NCBI GenBank assembly: GCA_041666915.1
Contig: JBAYFZ010000001.1
Location: 137,086-201,085 of the forward strand
Length of the DNA: 64,000 nucleotides
Source: Minisyncoccota bacterium
Lineage (GTDB): Bacteria; Patescibacteriota; Minisyncoccia; Phycocordibacterales; PALSA-1337
Reading direction: 5' to 3'
Below the pieces are notes generated by a model, which saw only the letters and a program-made list of their open reading frames with translations, searched no databases and was not told the origin of the DNA. Below are positions 6,278-52,848 of this stretch, piece by piece. Each line of letters begins with the position of its first letter. Position 1 is the stretch's first letter. Both the position numbers and the translations under genes were made by a program.

Positions 6278-6306
6278 CAAAAACTCCCCGCAATGGGGAT
6301 TTTTGT
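6278..6306. terminator. Bidirectional rho-independent terminator between the convergent genes 5415..6257 and tsaD.
   Basis: AAAAACTCCCCGCAATGGGGATTTTTGTT: stem TCCCC/GGGGA flanked by an A-run and a T-run. Confidence 0.7.
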
Positions 6307-7520
6307 TATAAACTTTTCGTACCCTGAGCGCGGAGACTAGCTGTATACTCTTTTTCGTCCAATGACCCCGCCAAAGCAATCATAAGAGCATTGTCTCCAG
6401 AAATATGATTTGAAGGTAGATATAGTGGAATATCAAATTCTTTGGCTGTATTCTCAAATGCTTTACGTAAAGTCTTGTTTGCACTTACACCACCTCCGAC
6501 AATAATAGTCTTTGCTCCGGTGTTTTCTATAGCAGAACGAAGTTTTGTATCCAAAGTTATTTTGACTGATTCTTCAAATTCCTTAGCCAATCCTTTTTTG
6601 AAATTATCATCTAATTTGCCATTTTCTTTTTCATAATTTCTAACAGCGTACATGACGGCAGTTTTCAATCCTGAGAATGAAAAATTCAGATCACCACTGT
6701 GAAGCATTGGTCTAGGTAATTTTACAATTGAGACGATCTTTTCTTCTTCTGCTTCGCCGGCCAACTTGCTTACATGAGGACCGCCAGGATATGGAAGTCC
6801 CAAAAGTCTTGCAACTTTGTCAAAAGCTTCGCCGACTGCATCATCTTTGGTTTGACCAAGAATGTTGTAACCAAGTGAGTTTTTGTCGGTTTTGATCTCT
6901 ACAAGTTCAGTGTGTCCACCACTTATGAGTAAAGCTATCGCAGGGAATGCTAGAGGTTTGAGTTTCTGCCATTCACCATGATGTTTGTCTGATTCTAATA
7001 ATGAACCTACGACATGACCTTCCATGTGGTTTACGGGGACGATCGGTATAGACCAAAGTCTAGAGAGTATTTGCCCAAAAATGATACCAACCCATAATGC
7101 TGGTTCAAGACCGGGTCCTTCGGTAACTGCTATACGGTCTATGTGAGGAATTGTTTTCAAGAATTCAACCTTCGCAAATGTTGTCATCAGATCTGAATTT
7201 CTTGCAGAAAAATCTGATTGGAATTGATTCATTCTCAAAGAGAATTGTTCATCGCTCAATAATTCATTTTTTGAATCGTAAATTGCTGACGTGGATTCAT
7301 CCAGTATTTTTTTGAGTAATGGTAACAAGTTTTTACCATGTTCACGTTTTGCTAGGGAAGGAAAGACCCCGCCAAAAGGACGGTGTAATTCGGCCTGTGA
7401 GTGTACCAATGAAGAAATGACGCGACATTCAAATATGCCGTCATTTGCGCGTGTTTCTATGAGTGCCAAAGCTGTCTCATCGCAACTGGTTTCTATACCT
7501 AGGGTGATCATAATGAACAT
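6306..7520 (-). CDS. tsaD: tRNA N6-adenosine threonylcarbamoyltransferase TsaD (Kae1/Gcp family), with an internal ~60-aa insertion.
   Basis: N-terminal …LGIETSCDETALALI… motif. HxxH metal site (HMEGH), GGVSANKTLR. Confidence 0.9.
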   Translation of the reverse strand: MFIMITLGIETSCDETALALIETRANDGIFECRVISSLVHSQAELHRPFGGVFPSLAKREHGKNLLPLLKKILDESTSAIYDSKNELLSDEQFSLRMNQFQSDFSARNSDLMTTFAKVEFLKTIPHIDRIAVTEGPGLEPALWVGIIFGQILSRLWSIPIVPVNHMEGHVVGSLLESDKHHGEWQKLKPLAFPAIALLISGGHTELVEIKTDKNSLGYNILGQTKDDAVGEAFDKVARLLGLPYPGGPHVSKLAGEAEEEKIVSIVKLPRPMLHSGDLNFSFSGLKTAVMYAVRNYEKENGKLDDNFKKGLAKEFEESVKITLDTKLRSAIENTGAKTIIVGGGVSANKTLRKAFENTAKEFDIPLYLPSNHISGDNALMIALAGSLDEKEYTASLRAQGTKSL

Positions 7521-7528
7521 TACTATAG

Positions 7529-7554
7529 CAGGATTCTTTCTTTACGGGAACGGT
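7529..7554 (+). repeat. 26-bp direct repeat, copy 1 (CAGGATTCTTTCTTTACGGGAACGGT), flanking the DUF5678/aspartic-protease cassette.
   Basis: 24/26 identity with the copy at 8228..8253. Both lie outside coding sequence. Confidence 0.8.
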
Positions 7555-7566
7555 GTGGGAATGGAA

Positions 7567-7965
7567 TTATTTTTTCTCTTTTATCTCAACTTCTCCCTTG
7601 GCGTAGTCAAATTTGATGATGAATTTATCAAAAAATCCTTTTTGTCCAACAATACCATACGAAACAATATTGCCACCTAGATTTGGCATGAATCCGACAT
7701 CTGTTTCAAACGATTTGTTACCAATTTTCAAAGTTACCTCATGATCATAATATAGAGAAATTTTACCACCAACACCAAAAACTTCTTTTGTTTTACTATT
7801 GTCTGTGCGAATACCTATTTTTTCACCAATCTCTGTATCAAAGAAACAATGATCAGAACCAGAATCAATTAACACTTCGTATCTGACACACTTACCAGAG
7901 TGCTCTAACGTTACAGGGACGACTGGTCTCAAAGCGTTTCCGTATTCCTTATACTTAAACTTCAT
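7567..7965 (-). CDS. Retropepsin-like (clan AA) aspartic peptidase domain protein.
   Basis: …YEVLIDSGSDHCFFD… (D-S-G active-site motif in a hydrophobic context). About 130 aa, typical of single-domain bacterial retropepsin-like proteins. Confidence 0.7.
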   Translation of the reverse strand: MKFKYKEYGNALRPVVPVTLEHSGKCVRYEVLIDSGSDHCFFDTEIGEKIGIRTDNSKTKEVFGVGGKISLYYDHEVTLKIGNKSFETDVGFMPNLGGNIVSYGIVGQKGFFDKFIIKFDYAKGEVEIKEKK

Positions 7966-8162
7966 AACGCGCCTCCAGCATAAGCTGATAGGCTAGGTGG
8001 CATTCGTGTAAAGATGGGATGGTCATACCCCTTTTTTTGAGCCATATCACTCGCTTCTTTCAAAGTTTTGCCGTGACCGACGACAGTTATTTCATCGTCA
8101 AGTAAAGCGACCCAAAGTCCCTTGTATTTTTTGTATATTTTAGTCCAGTTGATTGCTGACAT
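7962..8162 (-). CDS. Small protein resembling the DUF5678 family, translationally coupled (ATGA overlap) to the aspartic peptidase gene.
   Basis: …KYKGLWVALLDDEITVVGHGKTLKEASDMAQKKGYDHPIFTRMP… pattern. 4-nt overlap with the downstream CDS. Confidence 0.5.
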   Translation of the reverse strand: MSAINWTKIYKKYKGLWVALLDDEITVVGHGKTLKEASDMAQKKGYDHPIFTRMPPSLSAYAGGAL

Positions 8163-8168
8163 GATTCA

Positions 8169-8196
8169 ATTTTATCAGTCACAAAAACTTCGTCAA
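8169..8196 (-). promoter_or_regulatory. Candidate promoter (TTGACG-N16-TAAAAT on the minus strand) immediately upstream of the 7962..8162 gene start. Possibly gives a leaderless transcript. Overlaps a 10-bp palindrome, TCAATATTGA.
   Basis: Read on the reverse complement of 8165..8200. Confidence 0.35.
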
Positions 8197-8214
8197 TATT
8201 GACTATAAAAATAT

Positions 8215-8253
8215 TTTGTGCGCGATACAGGATTCTTTCCCTACGGGAACGGT
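8215..8253 (+). repeat. Composite repeat. It contains a 21-bp duplicate of the tRNA-Val 3' end plus flank (TTTGTGCGCGATACAGGATTC, identical to 8389..8409), fused to copy 2 of the 26-bp direct repeat (8228..8253).
   Basis: Exact 21/21 match to the 3' terminus of the genuine tRNA-Val gene. The next 26 bp match 7529..7554. Confidence 0.8.
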
Positions 8254-8295
8254 ATAGCCTTCACATTTTCTCAGACTCGACAAGCTCGTCCTCGA

Positions 8296-8349
8296 AAATA
8301 TGTTCAGACTTTTCGAATCCTGCCACAAGTGCCGTAGGGCACTTGTTAT
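8296..8349 (+). other. Inverted partial copy of the tRNA-Val 3' half (T-arm TTCGAATCCTG … acceptor TATCGCGCACAAAT), interrupted by a perfect 22-nt hairpin (ACAAGTGCC-GTAG-GGCACTTGT). Followed by a bidirectional terminator-like hairpin at 8350..8388.
   Basis: Sequence comparison with the reverse complement of 8393..8412. AAAAAAATCGCTCGATGCGATTTTCTT forms a stem flanked by A and T runs. Confidence 0.6.
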
Positions 8350-8392
8350 CGCGCACAAATAAAAAAATCGCTCGATGCGATTTTCTTATTTG

Positions 8393-8465
8393 TGCGCGAT
8401 ACAGGATTCGAACCTGTGACCCTCCCCACGTCAAGGGGATGCTCTACCAACTGAGCTAACCGCGC
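8393..8465 (-). tRNA. tRNA-Val (anticodon GAC).
   Basis: Cloverleaf folded by hand: acceptor GCGCGGT/ATCGCGC, D-arm GCTCAGTTGGTAGAGC, anticodon stem TCCCC/GGGGA with loop TTGACGT, T-arm ACAGGTTCGAATCCTGT. No encoded CCA. Confidence 0.9.
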
Positions 8466-8500: not shown

Positions 8501-9601
8501 CTAAAAATCCATCGGTCCCGAGTTCACGGTTACGTTGCGACGTGAGGCGGTGGAAGTTTCGTAAATCTTGATTTGTTCAATAGTAAACTTTCCTAATTTT
8601 TTTGTAAGGCGTAATTCTACAATATTACCTTTCATAACTTCTGGAGAAAAATATTGATCAAAAAGGAGGTTGCCTATTGAATAGAAAACAGGGACGTCAC
8701 CCATAAAAGAGTGTTCCAAAGTTACATGAGGGTGACCGCCGATTATTGCACTTGCGCCGACCGATACCAACGATCTGGCTTGCGACCTCATCATAGGAGA
8801 AGAACTGGTTGAATATTCTGTACCCCAGTGTGGCATTACGATGACAAAGTAACCATGGTCGGATAATCTTTTTACATCATCTAGTATCCTATCAAAACCC
8901 GGTTGAAAAGCGTGGTAACCGACGAAAGCAACAGTAATATCATTTTTAGTTATAACTGCTTCTGTGGAGCTTGCATTACGAGAATCGCCAAACCATTGGA
9001 GTCCGGATTTTGATAGCCATTTTTTTGTTTCTTCTAGTCCAGAAAGCCCGAAGTTGTCGGTATGATTGTTGGCTAAGCTGAGTAGAGTTATTCCTGTTTT
9101 TGTTAGTGTCTCAGTGACTTTTGGTTCAAATGTAAAAGTAAGTTCCTTGGAAATTTTTCCATTTGGTAAAAGAGTTTTTGATGGATTGGAAGTGATAGGT
9201 CCTTCTAGATTTGCTACGACAATATCAGCTTGTTTGAAAAGTTGTACAGTAGTAGAAGCAAAGAGGGAATCGTAGCCGTATTGTTGACCAAGCCTACGTA
9301 CACCACGGTCCATCATGATGTCGCCACCGATCATTATTGTAAGGGAAGAAGTTGATGGAGTTTTCGTTGTTATAGGAGTTGACTCTGATTGTTTGGAAGT
9401 ATCTGGGATTTCGGAAGATACGGAAATAGGTTGCTGATTTGATGATGTAATATTTTGTATGGCGACACTGACACTAGCGGGCATATTGCTTGCTTTGAAA
9501 CCTTGCAAGCCCACCCACAAAGAACCCCAACCGAATACAACAACTAGTATTGTGTAGAAGATCTTGGCTTTATCTATTGATTTTGGTTCTTCATTATCCA
9601 T
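8501..9601 (-). CDS. CapA/PgsA-family metallophosphatase-like protein (poly-gamma-glutamate capsule biosynthesis family) with an N-terminal membrane anchor.
   Basis: …IMIGGDIMMDRGV…ANLEGPIT…LSLANNHTDNFG…MPHWGTEY…IIGGHPHV… motifs. Confidence 0.8.
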   Translation of the reverse strand: MDNEEPKSIDKAKIFYTILVVVFGWGSLWVGLQGFKASNMPASVSVAIQNITSSNQQPISVSSEIPDTSKQSESTPITTKTPSTSSLTIMIGGDIMMDRGVRRLGQQYGYDSLFASTTVQLFKQADIVVANLEGPITSNPSKTLLPNGKISKELTFTFEPKVTETLTKTGITLLSLANNHTDNFGLSGLEETKKWLSKSGLQWFGDSRNASSTEAVITKNDITVAFVGYHAFQPGFDRILDDVKRLSDHGYFVIVMPHWGTEYSTSSSPMMRSQARSLVSVGASAIIGGHPHVTLEHSFMGDVPVFYSIGNLLFDQYFSPEVMKGNIVELRLTKKLGKFTIEQIKIYETSTASRRNVTVNSGPMDF

Positions 9602-10254: not shown

Positions 10255-10422
10255 AAGTCATGTCTTTCGTTGATTGTTTGAACCTACTGCTTTTATTATC
10301 ATAGCACGTAGTTTGTGTAGGTGTCAACTATAGGGGAACCGGTCACGCGTATTTTTCTGCTGAAAAATCGCGCGACCCCGACTCGCTCGCCTTCGCGAGC
10401 TCCGTCTTTCGATTCTGAAAAA

Positions 10423-10447
10423 GAGCAATACCCATTGCTCTTTTTCA
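10423..10447. terminator. Bidirectional terminator hairpin downstream of tRNA-Glu.
   Basis: AAAAAGAGCAATACCCATTGCTCTTTTTC. Confidence 0.6.
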
Positions 10448-10475
10448 CTACAAAATTTTACTTCGTAAATTTTTG

Positions 10476-11313: not shown

Positions 11314-11400
11314 GGAGAGATGGCTGAGTGGTTTAAGGCAGCGGTTTACTAAACCGCCGTTCCCTTACAGGAACCGTGGGTTCGAATCCCACTCTCTCCG
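11314..11400 (+). tRNA. Type II Ser-like tRNA whose anticodon loop reads TTACTAA. The anticodon is ACU, where a Ser-GCU would be expected.
   Basis: Acceptor GGAGAGA/TCTCTCC, discriminator G (Ser identity), anticodon stem GCGGT/ACCGC with 7-nt loop TTACTAA, variable arm TTCCCTTACAGGAA, T-arm GTGGGTTCGAATCCCAC. Confidence 0.8.
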
Positions 11401-11526
11401 CATTTGACTTCTATATTATATATGTTATAATCCACATAGAATAGTTGCCAACTGTTCTAGATTGCATGAAGTATTTTTGTAGGTTACAAGCCTATAAAAA
11501 TGGGCTACAACCCCATGGTCTGAAAA

Positions 11527-34758: not shown

Positions 34759-35442
34759 TTAATTCAAATTAACTAGATCCCTTGTTACTCTAGGGATCTG
34801 ATTCGTAAAAAAAGCTTTTACTTCCTTCCAACTGGCTTTGAAATTGGTCTCTGGATCTGGATCATTTTCAGCATCTTCAAAATAGACAAGACTTTTCAAA
34901 ATATGACTGACATTTTGTTTTACGGTGTATTGTTGATCAACTCGCCTTATACTCTCCTCAATGGGTAAAATATTCTGACTTAACCAATACATATCAATAA
35001 AATCTCGTTTTCGTCCTCGTTGACTTATAGCGACAACCTTCATGACAGAGATATCTTTGGGAGTTATAACGTTTACAAAACCAATCTTGAGCATATCATC
35101 TGCATTCTTAAAAAATGGATAGTAAATCAGACTCATCTTTGCGCCCAAAAATTCTCCATAAATAGTCCCGGGACTCATTGAGGTTGTTTCCCATTGACCT
35201 AAAGTGCTCAATTGTTCAGCAATCTTCCCTTCATCAAACTTTTGGTTTGTAAAAAAGTCCAAGTCAACTGATTTTCTATGACCAACTTGAAGAGTGAGTG
35301 CTGTTCCACCAGCAAGATACCAACCATTTTCTGCAAATAATGGGATTTCCACGCATCGTAAGAAAGCCCCCTTTGTCTTTTCGGACAACATCTCAAGGTG
35401 TAGACTTTCAATCGATGTCTTTACTGTAGGACTAGTGACCAT
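34759..35442 (-). CDS. Nucleotidyltransferase, AbiEii/AbiGii toxin family (DUF1814).
   Basis: …WYLAGGTALTLQVGHRKSVDLDFF… (GG…R.S.DLD nucleotidyltransferase motif of AbiEii). Confidence 0.75.
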   Translation of the reverse strand: MVTSPTVKTSIESLHLEMLSEKTKGAFLRCVEIPLFAENGWYLAGGTALTLQVGHRKSVDLDFFTNQKFDEGKIAEQLSTLGQWETTSMSPGTIYGEFLGAKMSLIYYPFFKNADDMLKIGFVNVITPKDISVMKVVAISQRGRKRDFIDMYWLSQNILPIEESIRRVDQQYTVKQNVSHILKSLVYFEDAENDPDPETNFKASWKEVKAFFTNQIPRVTRDLVNLN

Positions 35443-35678: not shown

Positions 35679-36218
35679 TCATTCAATTTCTTCGTAATTA
35701 TATGATTGATCCACTCCCTTCATGAAAACTTCGCGGTCATCGATTTTATCGGTCAAAGCGGTACGCAAAAGCTCGCGAATCTCTAGGTCATTCACCGGAC
35801 TGCGTTGCATTGCGTTCAAATAGTTGACCTTGTCGATCTTGACCCAATCAACACATTGTTTGAGATTTTTTTTAAACATCAAATCAAGCCAGATCCTCAT
35901 ACTCCGCCCGTTTCCTTCCATAAATGGATGAGCTATATTCATTTCCACATATTTTGCGACGATGTTCTCAAAAGTAATTTCCGACATTTTATCAATCTTT
36001 TTTAAACTTTCTTCCAGATATAAAGAAGAAGCAAATCGAAAGCCCCCTTTGCTTATATCTTTTATGCGAATCTGACCAGCAAAATCGTAAAGCTCCACAA
36101 ATAAATATTGGTGGATTTTTTGTAAACCTCTGGTTGTGCCGACCTCAAAACTTTCAATTTCCTGACTACCGAAAAGTTTTTTGGCTCGTTCTTTGCTGAT
36201 TTGGTCAACATTTGACAT
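35679..36218 (-). CDS. fic: Fic/Doc-family protein (AMPylating enzyme family).
   Basis: Canonical Fic motif [12 protein letters not shown]. Confidence 0.85.
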
Positions 36219-51269: not shown

Positions 51270-51680
51270 CTAACTCCCCCAGAACCAGGATATGATTTTC
51301 ATCCAGAAGGAATCAGGCTTTGATGCATGATCGTAATGTAGACTTCGAGCTTCCCTATCACTAATCCTAACTGCCTCAATATCACTCTTTGTCCATTTAG
51401 TCGCCCACATTATCTCGTTCGATCGTACCCAATAATGCGACTGACATGCAAAATTCCAGTTACCAATCGATGGATACAGTGTTGCTTTTCCTTTCTGGAT
51501 ATTAAGACTCCATCCACTGGGCTTCAGAGGTGTCACAACCTTATTTCCACACCCACAACAACATAAGTGACTGCACGTTTGGTATTTATTTGAAATATAA
51601 AGAATGCCTTCCTTCAAGTCAGTTGGGATAAATTCAACAAAATTTGGTTGGATAATTTTAGTCGGTTTCATCTGTGTCAT
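51270..51680 (-). CDS. Cys-rich small protein (C-x-H-x-CCCGCG … CQSH), candidate zinc-binding component of the Ubl/E1 operon.
   Basis: …QTCSHLCCCGCGNKVV…NFACQSHYW…. 23-nt overlap with the upstream E1-like gene (translational coupling). Confidence 0.5.
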   Translation of the reverse strand: MTQMKPTKIIQPNFVEFIPTDLKEGILYISNKYQTCSHLCCCGCGNKVVTPLKPSGWSLNIQKGKATLYPSIGNWNFACQSHYWVRSNEIMWATKWTKSDIEAVRISDREARSLHYDHASKPDSFWMKIISWFWGS

Positions 51681-52848
51681 TTAACAACATATTTCCTCCT
51701 ATCGTGTATGTACTAAAGTTTTCTTTCTTCGTGTCAAAATAGAAGCCACGCATTTTTTTCCATTTAATAACTGCTTGAATTGCATTAAGGGCATTGAGAT
51801 CCGCTACTTGGATATTTTTATCGTACTCATTTGCTCCTTGGTCAGTTGGTACAAACGAGATATGTGACCGCGCATTTTCACGATTACTGGATGTGCTGGA
51901 TGTTGTCCTTAATATTCCACCCAGTTTTTCGTCTTTGGCATAAATACCAATTCCCGTGTCAATGAACGAAATATCCTTCTGTTCCAAGTACTCGACTATG
52001 GTTTTCTTTGCGGGACCTGCATCCATACAAAGAAATACATGCGACATGCCATCTAACTGATCGATATTCGTAGTATCAATCGGCACTGGGTGAGCGATGA
52101 TTCCTTTATGCATACGAGAATAAATCTCTTTAAGATAGTCTACTTTAAACATTTGCCTATGGAGATCGTCTATCGAAGCTGCCCCAGGCGCTCGAAAAGC
52201 GTTGTGTGATGAGAATTTATCACCATCGAATAAATGAATTTCTTTGACTGGTGTTTTAGCGATAAAATCAAGAACATATGAACCGGTACCACCCAGCCCT
52301 ACTATCGCCAGCTTTTCTACTGCGAGTTTTTGAGTAATCATATTTATATCTACCCGAGCAGACGCAGTATCAATATATTGAAAAGGTGAATTGTCGTCTT
52401 CGGGCACCACCACCTGATACGTCTTCGAAGTCGCTGATTGATCAATGACTGAGGCGTGACCCTCTATTATTGCCGCATATGTTTTTATCTTTTCATAGTA
52501 GTTTTCATAGTGGCCGCGAGGAGGCTTACTAGAAAAAGAGTGCCGCGTAGTTATACTCTCGCTTATTCGAACAAGGTCACTGTTATGTTTAATACCCGCA
52601 ATAAGCTGGCCATCACTCGAGCACGGATGATCCCCAACAAATTTGATTGTATGATCGCCTGGACGATTGGTAATGTCCCCATTCAAGTCTAAACTGGTCA
52701 CCAAAATACCGTCACGACAAACCTGACGCTTGTCGTTTACATATGGAATATCCCTGACGATAAGATGTCCAGCATGGATATCTACATTAAAACCTGCGTC
52801 ACGGAGTTTCCGAAGATCGTCATTAAGATCGATTAGTCTGTGTGACAT
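51658..52848 (-). CDS. ThiF/MoeB/E1-like ubiquitin-activating-enzyme-family protein with an ~180-aa N-terminal domain of unknown function (contains an HPC motif; possibly E2-like).
   Basis: Rossmann nucleotide-binding …LAIVGLGGTGSYVLDFIA…IHLFDGDKFSSHNAFRAPGA… typical of E1-like adenylyltransferases. N-terminal …IKFVGDHPCSSDGQLIAG…. Confidence 0.75.
   Translation of the reverse strand: MSHRLIDLNDDLRKLRDAGFNVDIHAGHLIVRDIPYVNDKRQVCRDGILVTSLDLNGDITNRPGDHTIKFVGDHPCSSDGQLIAGIKHNSDLVRISESITTRHSFSSKPPRGHYENYYEKIKTYAAIIEGHASVIDQSATSKTYQVVVPEDDNSPFQYIDTASARVDINMITQKLAVEKLAIVGLGGTGSYVLDFIAKTPVKEIHLFDGDKFSSHNAFRAPGAASIDDLHRQMFKVDYLKEIYSRMHKGIIAHPVPIDTTNIDQLDGMSHVFLCMDAGPAKKTIVEYLEQKDISFIDTGIGIYAKDEKLGGILRTTSSTSSNRENARSHISFVPTDQGANEYDKNIQVADLNALNAIQAVIKWKKMRGFYFDTKKENFSTYTIGGNMLLNDTDETD

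Follow-up and report, generated by a model that had tools for sequence, protein, structure and literature searches.

Why should a bacterial locus that encodes no integrase be littered with copies of a tRNA 3′ end? The question is posed by a 64,000-nt stretch of a Minisyncoccota genome (Patescibacteriota; contig JBAYFZ010000001.1, positions 137,086 to 201,085; hereafter, the window), in which a cassette of two small genes, encoding a DUF5678 protein and a retropepsin-like aspartic protease, is bounded by a 26-nt direct repeat and lies next to a tRNA-Val gene and to direct and inverted copies of its 3′ terminus. An earlier note on this DNA suggested that the arrangement may be a decayed or miniature integrative cassette or a repeatedly used attachment site. 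Here, we show that most of these repeats are parts of one structured element, denoted R1, which recurs behind many tRNA genes, and we lean towards the view that the locus is a tRNA-proximal insertion hot spot, occupied by a member of a non-autonomous, T-loop-targeting R1 family and by an independently mobile cassette.

Architecture and covariation of R1

All genes of the locus, namely, tsaD, the protease and DUF5678 genes, tRNA-Val and the PGA_cap gene, are on the minus strand. The two copies of the 26-nt repeat (7529-7554, site A, and 8228-8253) are identical at 24 of 26 positions and are spaced by 699 bp, start to start, and a 21-nt repeat is exact (8215-8235 and 8389-8409); in dinucleotide shuffles, the expected number of matches was 0.00 for the 26-nt repeat and 0.00 for the 21-nt repeat. 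The 8389-8409 copy of the 21-mer extends from the 3′ half of the tRNA-Val T loop to 4 bases beyond the discriminator; it takes in the 3′ end of the tRNA gene together with 3 trailer bases. Region 8215-8253 (site B) is a hybrid, the left part of which equals the tRNA site and the right part site A. The inverted copy of the tRNA is split into two pieces, 8312-8322 (11 nt, inverted repeat I14) and 8347-8359 (13 nt, I7), both 100% complementary, with a perfect 22-nt hairpin of 9 bp and a 4-nt loop between them (8325-8346). The two repeats, the inverted fragments and the hairpin are thus all present as described in the earlier note. The components on the tRNA side of the locus, together with the solitary copy of the repeat at its far end, are as follows.

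8392-8465, minus strand: intact tRNA-Val(GAC) (ARAGORN; Rfam tRNA model, 68.3 bits)
8389-8409, minus strand: proximal copy of segment X, GAAUCCUGUAUCGCGCACAAA, comprising the T-loop 3′ half, T-stem 3′ strand, acceptor 3′ strand, discriminator and 4 more bases (exact 21-nt repeat)
8364-8384, no strand assigned: terminator-like hairpin with A and T runs on its flanks (terminator scan)
8347-8371 and 8377-8401: 25-nt arms of a palindrome centred on the terminator-like hairpin and reaching the acceptor strand (inverted repeat I1, 96% complementary)
8215-8359, minus strand: complete T-arm-mimic element R1, helices P0 to P4 (covariance model, fold)
8347-8359, minus strand: P0 5′ strand, the acceptor part of X′, UUUGUGCGCGAUA, complement of 8215-8227 (I7; paired in the fold)
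8325-8346, minus strand: variable hairpin P1, 9 bp, 4-nt loop (sequence, fold, covariation)
8312-8322, minus strand: P2 5′ strand, CAGGAUUC followed by GAA, the T-arm part of X′ (I14; helix in the 19-copy alignment)
8256-8311, minus strand: P3 domain, a long stem, a conserved tandem G.A/A.G internal loop and an inner hairpin (covariation)
8237-8249, minus strand: invariant hairpin P4, UUCCC-GUA-GGGAA, with UACCG before and A after (invariant alignment columns)
8215-8235, minus strand: distal copy of X, the second exact tRNA-Val 3′ segment, supplying the 3′ strands of P2 (8228-8235) and P0 (8215-8227)
7529-7554, minus strand: solitary R1-type 3′-terminal fragment, ACCG-UUCCC-GUA-AAGAA-A plus the core GAAUCCUG

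When public metagenome contigs were scanned with the middle of the 26-mer, a 23-nt motif (GGATTCTTTCNNTACGGGAACGG), it was found in 23 contigs; the repeat, for which the earlier note had proposed a search elsewhere, is therefore far from confined to the window. On the tRNA strand, all loci show the features in one order. The tRNA ends in segment X (GAAUCC, T-stem 3′ strand, acceptor 3′ strand and discriminator) and is followed by a spacer, often containing a hairpin with flanking A/U runs, and by the first half of X′, the complement of the acceptor. Then come the variable hairpin P1, the second half of X′ (xxAGGAUUC, complementary to the T stem and T loop) with GAARA, the P3 domain, UGUACCG, the P4 hairpin UUCCC-GUA-GGGAA, a single A and the second copy of X. 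The outer helices P0 and P2 are built from one stretch of the neighbouring tRNA, which starts midway through the T loop and stops just beyond the 3′ end: X repeats this stretch, and X′ is its complement. P4 directly adjoins the T-loop core GAAUCC. What had been taken for independent scars hence resolves into a single covarying element: the duplicate of the tRNA end corresponds to the 3′ strands of P0 and P2, the inverted copy to their 5′ strands, the 22-nt hairpin to P1 and the right 26-bp repeat to P4 plus the 3′ strand of P2.

When 16 copies were aligned with MAFFT, RNAalifold derived a consensus with 36 pairs, and compensatory double changes were present in 24. A covariance model built from this consensus detects one full copy in the window (8214-8369, minus strand; 136.4 bits, E = 4e-38) and copies in all contigs; the solitary fragment at 7529-7554 scores only 6.8 bits against the full model, and two substitutions break its P4 stem on the sense strand. 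In the model-based alignment of 19 copies, which was fitted to the model and favours structure, 95.1% of the cells are paired and 28 of the 36 pairs show changes on both sides, with the independent MAFFT/RNAalifold result (24/36) in agreement. None of 500 shuffles of this alignment reached the observed values, and sliding the 3′ partners reduced pairing to 30-48%. All eight modelled pairs of P1 covary among the 19 copies, and 11 of the 12 pairs of P3 are changed on both sides. Even P4 varies in diverged copies, a UCCAU-GUA-AUGGG variant covarying around the constant GUA loop and one copy having UUUUC-AUG-GGAAA. The window copy folds to the family architecture, including a 12-bp P0 (-67.8 kcal/mol, z -8.3), and at the P0/P1/P2 junction of the fold, the acceptor-like helix is continuous with the T-stem-like helix. 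R1 is, accordingly, a conserved structured RNA or single-stranded DNA element that is kept by compensatory changes.

Rfam 15 includes no family for R1: the window region matches tRNA only (E<=10), as do five other R1 loci (E<=0.1). ARAGORN calls four tRNAs in the window and takes R1 for neither a tRNA nor a transfer-messenger RNA (tmRNA); the element has acceptor-like and T-stem-like helices only, with no anticodon arm or tmRNA tag frame. A literature search found no description of R1, and the family is apparently undescribed. Several known structures were considered and rejected. Hammerhead and other small ribozymes and the K-turn have no Rfam match and sequence features speak against them; a retron non-coding RNA (ncRNA) likewise lacks an Rfam match, and no reverse transcriptase lies downstream. 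The ends of IS200/IS605 elements were dismissed given that P1 and P4 are dissimilar, and integron attC sites were dismissed on sequence features. The resemblance to IS91 and oriT nic sites comes down to the shared T-loop hexamer, and GUGCG, reminiscent of a group II intron 5′ end, is specific to the tRNA here.

Such a fold could belong to a resident functional tRNA-like ncRNA, co-transcribed with the tRNA or read through from it, with the copies kept similar by gene conversion rather than transposition. The mimic could then be a substrate of RNase P or of 3′ processing, or an insulator or processing signal for downstream genes, and the cassette repeats would stem from homologous or illegitimate recombination between copies of the conserved 3′ motif. 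The strength of the covariation is in line with this explanation, as are the tandem G.A loop and the GUA triloop, which are specific to the tRNA strand, the continuity of the acceptor-like and T-stem-like helices and the fact that P2 always matches the T stem of the neighbouring tRNA. However, R1 has no promoter of its own, and at many loci a terminator-like hairpin stands between it and the tRNA; P0 has decayed in about half of the copies, so that full tRNA mimicry is not required; and ARAGORN, as noted above, recognizes neither a tRNA nor a tmRNA. Together with the distribution described below, this makes a purely resident RNA appear rather unlikely.

Distribution, mosaics and arrays

In all contigs with enough sequence, the motif is located 90-150 nt 3′ of a tRNA gene and on the tRNA strand. 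The adjacent tRNAs are Val-GAC, Val-CAC, Val-TAC, Ile, Lys, Arg-GCG, Arg-TCG, Tyr and Pro, and Gly too; the R1 copies measure ~145-155 nt, and the hosts are Paceibacteria-like bacteria of the candidate phyla radiation (CPR). A scan of viral contigs with the motif gave 0 hits, and BLAST searches against phages and plasmids matched the tRNA part only, or nothing. Within the window, R1 accompanies one of the four tRNAs and an element of a second type, described below, another; occupancy of only some tRNAs speaks against a resident RNA.

The start of the distal X is fixed at one T-loop position and matches the T stem of the neighbouring tRNA, whereas the length shared between the proximal and distal copies ranges widely (24, 21, 18, 18, 12, 12, 11, 11, 10, 9, 9, 8, 8, 8, 7 and 6 nt). 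The X copies thus have a fixed left boundary and a variable or decayed right boundary.

Similarity among R1 copies does not track the orthology of their loci (compared loci are given L numbers). In one metagenome, identical elements are found behind tRNA-Val (L012) and tRNA-Ile (L010). P3 of the window copy is 84.7% identical to that of the tRNA-Leu(TAA) copy in L032 and 44-45% identical to those of the tRNA-Val copies in L018 and L019. Likewise, P3 of the tRNA-Arg(GCG) copy in L017 is 96.8% identical to that of the tRNA-Lys copy of the related contig L014, versus 42.9% for the orthologous tRNA-Arg(GCG) copy of L014; the P1 of the same L017 copy is of the Arg-locus type, making it a mosaic. 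Such a mosaic also fits gene conversion among resident RNAs.

Many copies are 3′-terminal fragments, truncated at the 5′ side, that retain the exact P4-A/GAAUCC junction (here and below, a slash marks the junction). For instance, the last ~38 nt of the element directly follow tRNA-Pro in L016, a 24-nt piece is enclosed between 14- and 17-nt copies of X in L026, and another copy in L026 begins in the middle of P1. In L012, a 26-nt unit is repeated in tandem (3.9 copies), and further tandem arrays are present in L008, L022, L024 and L026, the last with seven copies of GAATCCTACCGCC behind the 3′ end of one RNA gene. In L026, a perfect 40-nt repeat, consisting of the P4 motif, the core and X, is found on both sides of a gene for an HD-domain protein, which parallels the cassette of the window. 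Solitary truncated 3′ ends, tandem arrays and motif-flanked cargo would be unexpected for a housekeeping RNA. Taken together, the observations suggest that R1 is not one gene passed on vertically but a family with many copies that recombine and are probably mobile.

The RNA gene that seeds the L026 array deserves a separate remark. In the region 99-431, the T-arm/acceptor-like 3′ end ...GGTTCGAATCCTACCGCCGGAGCA is immediately preceded by a match to a group I intron (RF00028, 52.1 bits). Neither a tRNA nor a tmRNA is called at this place by ARAGORN, and assignment as a tmRNA 3′ end was dropped in view of the Rfam match to the intron.

At many loci, the tRNA and R1 are separated by a terminator-like hairpin, and perfect palindromes of 24-26 bp, comprising the acceptor 3′ strand, a locus-specific spacer and the terminator hairpin, occur in the unrelated loci L014, L008 and L017 (compare 8347-8401 in the window). 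Palindromes centred on hairpins and the 26-nt array of L012 are possible products of template switching or slippage, and one could imagine that such accidents at T-arm and terminator hairpins generated the whole pattern, with no element or function involved. Nevertheless, an architecture of ~145 nt with compensatory changes recurs at many tRNAs and in many contigs, and the repeats have the negligible chance expectation given above. This explanation is largely refuted by the family-wide covariation, and we consider it extremely improbable.

The second family ends in ...GUGACC/GARUCC, at the same kind of junction, and has one representative in the window.

10328-10474, minus strand: type 2 element, 3′ of tRNA-Glu (sequence, fold, alignment to L015)

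Here, the 5′ part, AGAAUCGAA, mirrors the T loop of tRNA-Glu(UUC), and the 3′ end reads ...GUGACC/GGUUCCCC, that is, ...ACGCGUGACC/GGUUCCCCUAUAG. The element folds with z -7.6 and aligns to L015 6596-6722, which follows tRNA-Leu(CAA). Furthermore, a boundary motif, GATCTGTACCCCATAAARTGGACAC, was noticed beside partial tRNA 3′ ends in intervals between tRNAs and cassettes (L030 3686-3740; L037 1781-1830 and 2640-2730), suggesting further types of small elements at tRNA flanks. An unrelated peculiarity concerns the tRNA called by ARAGORN at 11314-11401 (plus strand), a tRNA-Ser with the anticodon ACT and hence A at position 34; for a tRNA-Ser reading AGY codons, the anticodon GCU is expected.

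The tRNA-Val/tsaD locus and its cassette

The flanks of the locus allow it to be compared among relatives.

6306-7520, minus strand: tsaD, conserved flank (Pfam TsaD; tblastn to L012, L018 and L019)
8501-9601, minus strand: PGA_cap (CapA-like) gene, conserved flank on the other side of tRNA-Val (Pfam; synteny with L012 and L006)

Syntenic contigs recovered with tblastn are L012, L018, L019 and L006, the last being the L012 sequence from another sample; a TsaD scan of genome contigs was of no use, returning only a 37%-identical gammaproteobacterial match. The TsaD of L012, L018 and L019 shares 59-62% identity with that of the window, and the partial match in L006 shares 63%; for PGA_cap, the identity is 49% in both L012 and L006. 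In all four contigs, tRNA-Val(GAC) is followed by R1. Where no cassette is present, tsaD follows closely: the element spans 1890-2038 in L018, with tsaD from 2045, and 73-234 in L019, with tsaD from 280, so that tsaD begins 6-45 nt behind the element. In L012, by contrast, R1 is followed by the 26-nt tandem units, then by a different gene, an ORF of 251 aa that is hydrophobic at its N terminus, and then by tsaD. The R1-tsaD interval is thus variable in gene content, and given that relatives either lack the DUF5678/protease pair or carry another gene instead, the pair represents an insertion at the window locus. An empty site is seen for the cassette (L018 and L019) and not for R1. Exact-protein look-ups found the same genome in three samples, 100% identical, with no population variation visible.

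This comparison, which the earlier note had recommended, shows R1 kept and the cassette absent or replaced, and it separates what can be retained of the integrative interpretation from what cannot. Insertion of the cassette stands, backed by the empty sites of L018 and L019 and the other gene of L012, as does the idea of a repeatedly used site at the tRNA flank, in view of the relatives with no cassette or another gene and of the occurrence of the pair behind four different tRNAs elsewhere (see below). By contrast, the 26-bp repeat is not a cassette-specific site. The partial tRNA copies are not a plain attL/attR pair, the 21-nt repeat flanks R1 and the terminator and not the cassette, and the notion of integration scars gives way as well: their arrangement is conserved at this locus in relatives, the very observation named beforehand as contradicting it.

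Could an integrase nonetheless have been at work, with the cassette, R1 or both being decayed miniature cis-mobilisable elements that have the tRNA-end repeats as attL and attR and are moved by a tyrosine integrase from another part of the genome? A repeat from the T loop to the tRNA 3′ end is a classical sublocation of tRNA-integrating elements, and that is what the repeat here spans. The hybrid site B, the reconstituted tRNA with a terminator after it and the empty site in syntenic relatives are compatible with this scenario too, and the arrays of partial tRNA ends resemble tRNA-seeded islands (bioRxiv 10.1101/2020.12.28.424599). Yet none of the 44 window ORFs scanned encodes an integrase, as the earlier note had stated, and none is recurrent near 18 element-bearing loci. 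The units between repeats are as small as 18-24 nt (the L012 array and the L026 piece), which by our own reasoning seems too little for the integration of a circle. Besides, an attP would normally correspond to a single tRNA, and here one motif stands beside many different ones; internal covariation of the kind seen in R1 is foreign to the arm regions of attP; and the 21-nt repeat encloses R1 instead of the cassette. We therefore regard integrase-mediated integration as improbable.

The cassette itself, with its boundaries, consists of the following features.

8169-8203, minus strand: cassette promoter, -35 TTGACG and -10 TAAAAT, with the 12-bp palindrome GTCAATATTGAC (8192-8203)
7962-8162, minus strand: DUF5678 protein, 66 aa (Pfam PF18929, E 2.7e-8)
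7567-7965, minus strand: retropepsin-like aspartic protease, 132 aa, with the active-site motif DSG (Pfam PF13650; PADLOC PDC-M08B)

Both assignments exceed the Pfam gathering cutoffs (33.9 bits versus 23.2 for DUF5678; 30.7 versus 24.3 for Asp_protease_2). The ORFs overlap by 4 nt, and a promoter-like TTGACG-16-TAAAAT with an extended TG precedes the DUF5678 gene (8196 to 8169, minus strand), bearing out the earlier description of two genes with a promoter of their own. The palindrome over the -35 hexamer is conserved, along with the upstream region, beside homologues in L028, L030, L032, L035 and L037 and is probably an operator for autoregulation.

Searches yielded 218 homologues of the protease and 495 of the DUF5678 protein, from Patescibacteria where named (for DUF5678, mostly so), and the two genes stay paired among homologues; NCBI lists the protein of the window itself under a Candidatus Paceibacterota bacterium. 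The closer homologues (protease identity of 66-80%) have the pair immediately 3′ of a same-strand tRNA, in differing contexts.

L028: cassette behind tRNA-Leu(TAG)
L030 and L032: cassette behind rbfA, tRNA-Cys and tRNA-Leu(TAA)
L035: cassette behind divIC and tRNA-Gly(CCC)
L037: the tRNA-Gly context of L035, but with the cassette set apart from the tRNA by two extra ORFs (none in L035)

In L028 and L035, the cassette begins 6-10 nt behind the tRNA and R1 is missing, whereas in L032 an R1 copy (110 bits) separates the cassette from the tRNA. The best reading of these contexts is that the cassette is mobile independently, separate from R1.

As to function, the protease is matched by the PADLOC model for component B of PDC-M08, a candidate defence system (E 3.9e-10). 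Like two-gene toxin-antitoxin and PDC-M08 modules, the cassette has a small upstream gene that overlaps the gene for a small enzyme, its own promoter, a putative palindromic operator and a variable accessory context; unlike PDC-M08, its DUF5678 partner matches no PADLOC model and no solved fold. Searching the PDB by sequence gave nothing meaningful for the DUF5678 protein and no close solved relative for the protease. With the AlphaFold model of the DUF5678 protein (pLDDT 78.5), Foldseek matches reached E=2 at best, and our literature search found no paper on the function of DUF5678. From its architecture, the pair would be a toxin-antitoxin-like or defence-like accessory module. Elsewhere on the minus strand of the window are other accessory or defence-type genes, encoding an AbiEii toxin (34759-35442), a Fic protein (35679-36218) and a DUF6791+ThiF protein (51658-52848).

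A model of insertion at the tRNA flank

Under the hot-spot reading that we favour, R1, or 5′-truncated pieces that always keep the P4 end, would insert at GGTTC/GAATCC of tRNA genes or of leftover tRNA fragments by means of an enzyme supplied in trans. Insertion would duplicate the sequence from the T loop to just past the tRNA end, and owing to this duplication the tRNA would stay intact; the exact 21-nt repeat in the window would be the target duplication made by a complete R1. The cassette, which would tend to land directly behind tRNA genes with its own promoter and palindromic operator, may already have been downstream of tRNA-Val before R1, comparable to the tRNA-adjacent cassettes of L028 and L035. 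The solitary P4 fragment beside tsaD may be the remnant of an older element, like those adjoining tsaD in L018 and L019. A cassette placed between a complete R1 and a decayed 3′-terminal fragment would then be bounded by the 26-bp direct repeat. Copies that share the 3′ end, are truncated to differing degrees at the 5′ side and have duplications of varying length are what target-primed reverse transcription would give; each of these features is seen here, and deletion and decay could mimic the pattern.

Several observations weigh against this scenario. First, no clean pair of filled and empty sites for R1 was found among closely related genomes, the three samples being identical, and R1 is present at the tRNA-Val/tsaD locus in 4/4 syntenic relatives, as a resident functional RNA would be; with TsaD ~60% identical and the differences in R1 compensated, this conservation is also a point in favour of the resident RNA. 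Second, the 44 ORFs scanned in the window yielded neither an integrase nor a transposase, reverse transcriptase or HUH enzyme, none of these was recurrent in the set of 83 ORFs near the 18 loci, in which no recombinase family was represented, and no source of a reverse transcriptase or endonuclease was found in the 64-kb window or near related loci. Third, X′ matches each neighbouring tRNA, and the palindrome formed by the tRNA end, terminator and X′ goes beyond simple cut-and-paste or copy-in; it calls either for strong selection or for copying from a template, by fold-back or template switching, and is not produced by any simple model. Fourth, paired cells in R1 include 18 G.U and 14 A.C combinations, and counts so similar do not separate RNA from single-stranded DNA, although the lack of G.U enrichment tells against a resident RNA as well. 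Finally, the more distant homologues of the cassette (52-56%) are not beside a same-strand tRNA, and neither the P4 motif nor a tRNA repeat is found downstream of the cassette homologues in L028, L030 and L035, or after the cassettes of L032 and L037, indicating that the 26-bp repeat is not a general feature of the cassette.

A bolder extension of the hot-spot reading would make R1 and the type 2 element new folded insertion or recombination modules at the tRNA T loop which, with an enzyme in trans, might form an integron- or retroelement-like platform for cassette capture in CPR bacteria; X and X′ might then be target-matching segments. We consider this doubtful, and comparison with known systems shows partial likeness in several directions. 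In tRNA-seeded islands such as tycheposons, insertions 3′ of tRNA genes are accompanied by scattered partial tRNAs, degenerate remnants and cargo-only pieces (bioRxiv 10.1101/2020.12.28.424599). As in the Prochlorococcus tycheposons and integrase-less cis-mobilisable elements, copies of the tRNA 3′ end flank the units here, with newer units pushing older ones outward; unlike them, no integrase was found, the units are 18-155 nt long, and one covarying module stands beside many tRNAs. With integron cassettes and attC sites, the locus shares cargo bounded by a short site, conservation of structure over sequence, and arrays, and these systems provide a precedent for recombination sites in the form of folded single strands. 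However, no IntI was found, the repeat ACCGTTCCCGTAGGGAAAGAATCCTG has neither a GTTRRRY core nor an R/L box pattern (R″, L″, L′ and R′), the cassette has its own promoter, and at its end P4 with the T-loop core alone is repeated.

The exact shared 3′ end, variable 5′ truncation and duplications with one fixed and one variable boundary are likewise typical of target-primed retroelements of the short interspersed nuclear element (SINE) type, which also draw on tRNA-related sequence and need an enzyme supplied in trans. In contrast to these, the present element is bacterial, no reverse transcriptase was identified, there is no 3′ tail, and the mechanism does not predict X′. In that genuine tRNA sequence forms an acceptor-like helix which runs on into a T-stem-like one, R1 is reminiscent of tRNA-like structures (the tmRNA domain, mascRNA and viral 3′ ends), but it lacks an anticodon or D arm, carries a two-hairpin insertion of ~85 nt at the T-loop position, often has a decayed acceptor helix and is missed by ARAGORN and the Rfam tRNA clan models. 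Finally, a conserved scaffold of ~130 nt followed by a variable segment of ~20 nt identical to the adjacent target (X) recalls the omega RNA of TnpB and IscB and the bridge RNA of IS110; unlike in these guide-carrying transposons, no gene for TnpB, IscB or an IS110 recombinase lies beside any copy, X pairs with X′, and there is no Rfam match.

To our knowledge, how CPR bacteria gain accessory genes is poorly understood; the genomes of these Patescibacteria are small, and few recognizable mobile elements were found here. To the known repertoire, R1 would contribute a non-autonomous mobile element of a new kind or else a new RNA that mimics tRNA. If it proves to be a module of recombination or retrotransposition, it would be a new kind of element and, otherwise, a variant of tRNA-targeted insertion. 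For annotation, the immediate message is that partial-tRNA repeats in CPR genomes need not be att sites. Being widespread, integrase-less, arrayed and located at spots of variable gene content, R1 would provide a searchable marker for the sites at which these bacteria gain genes.

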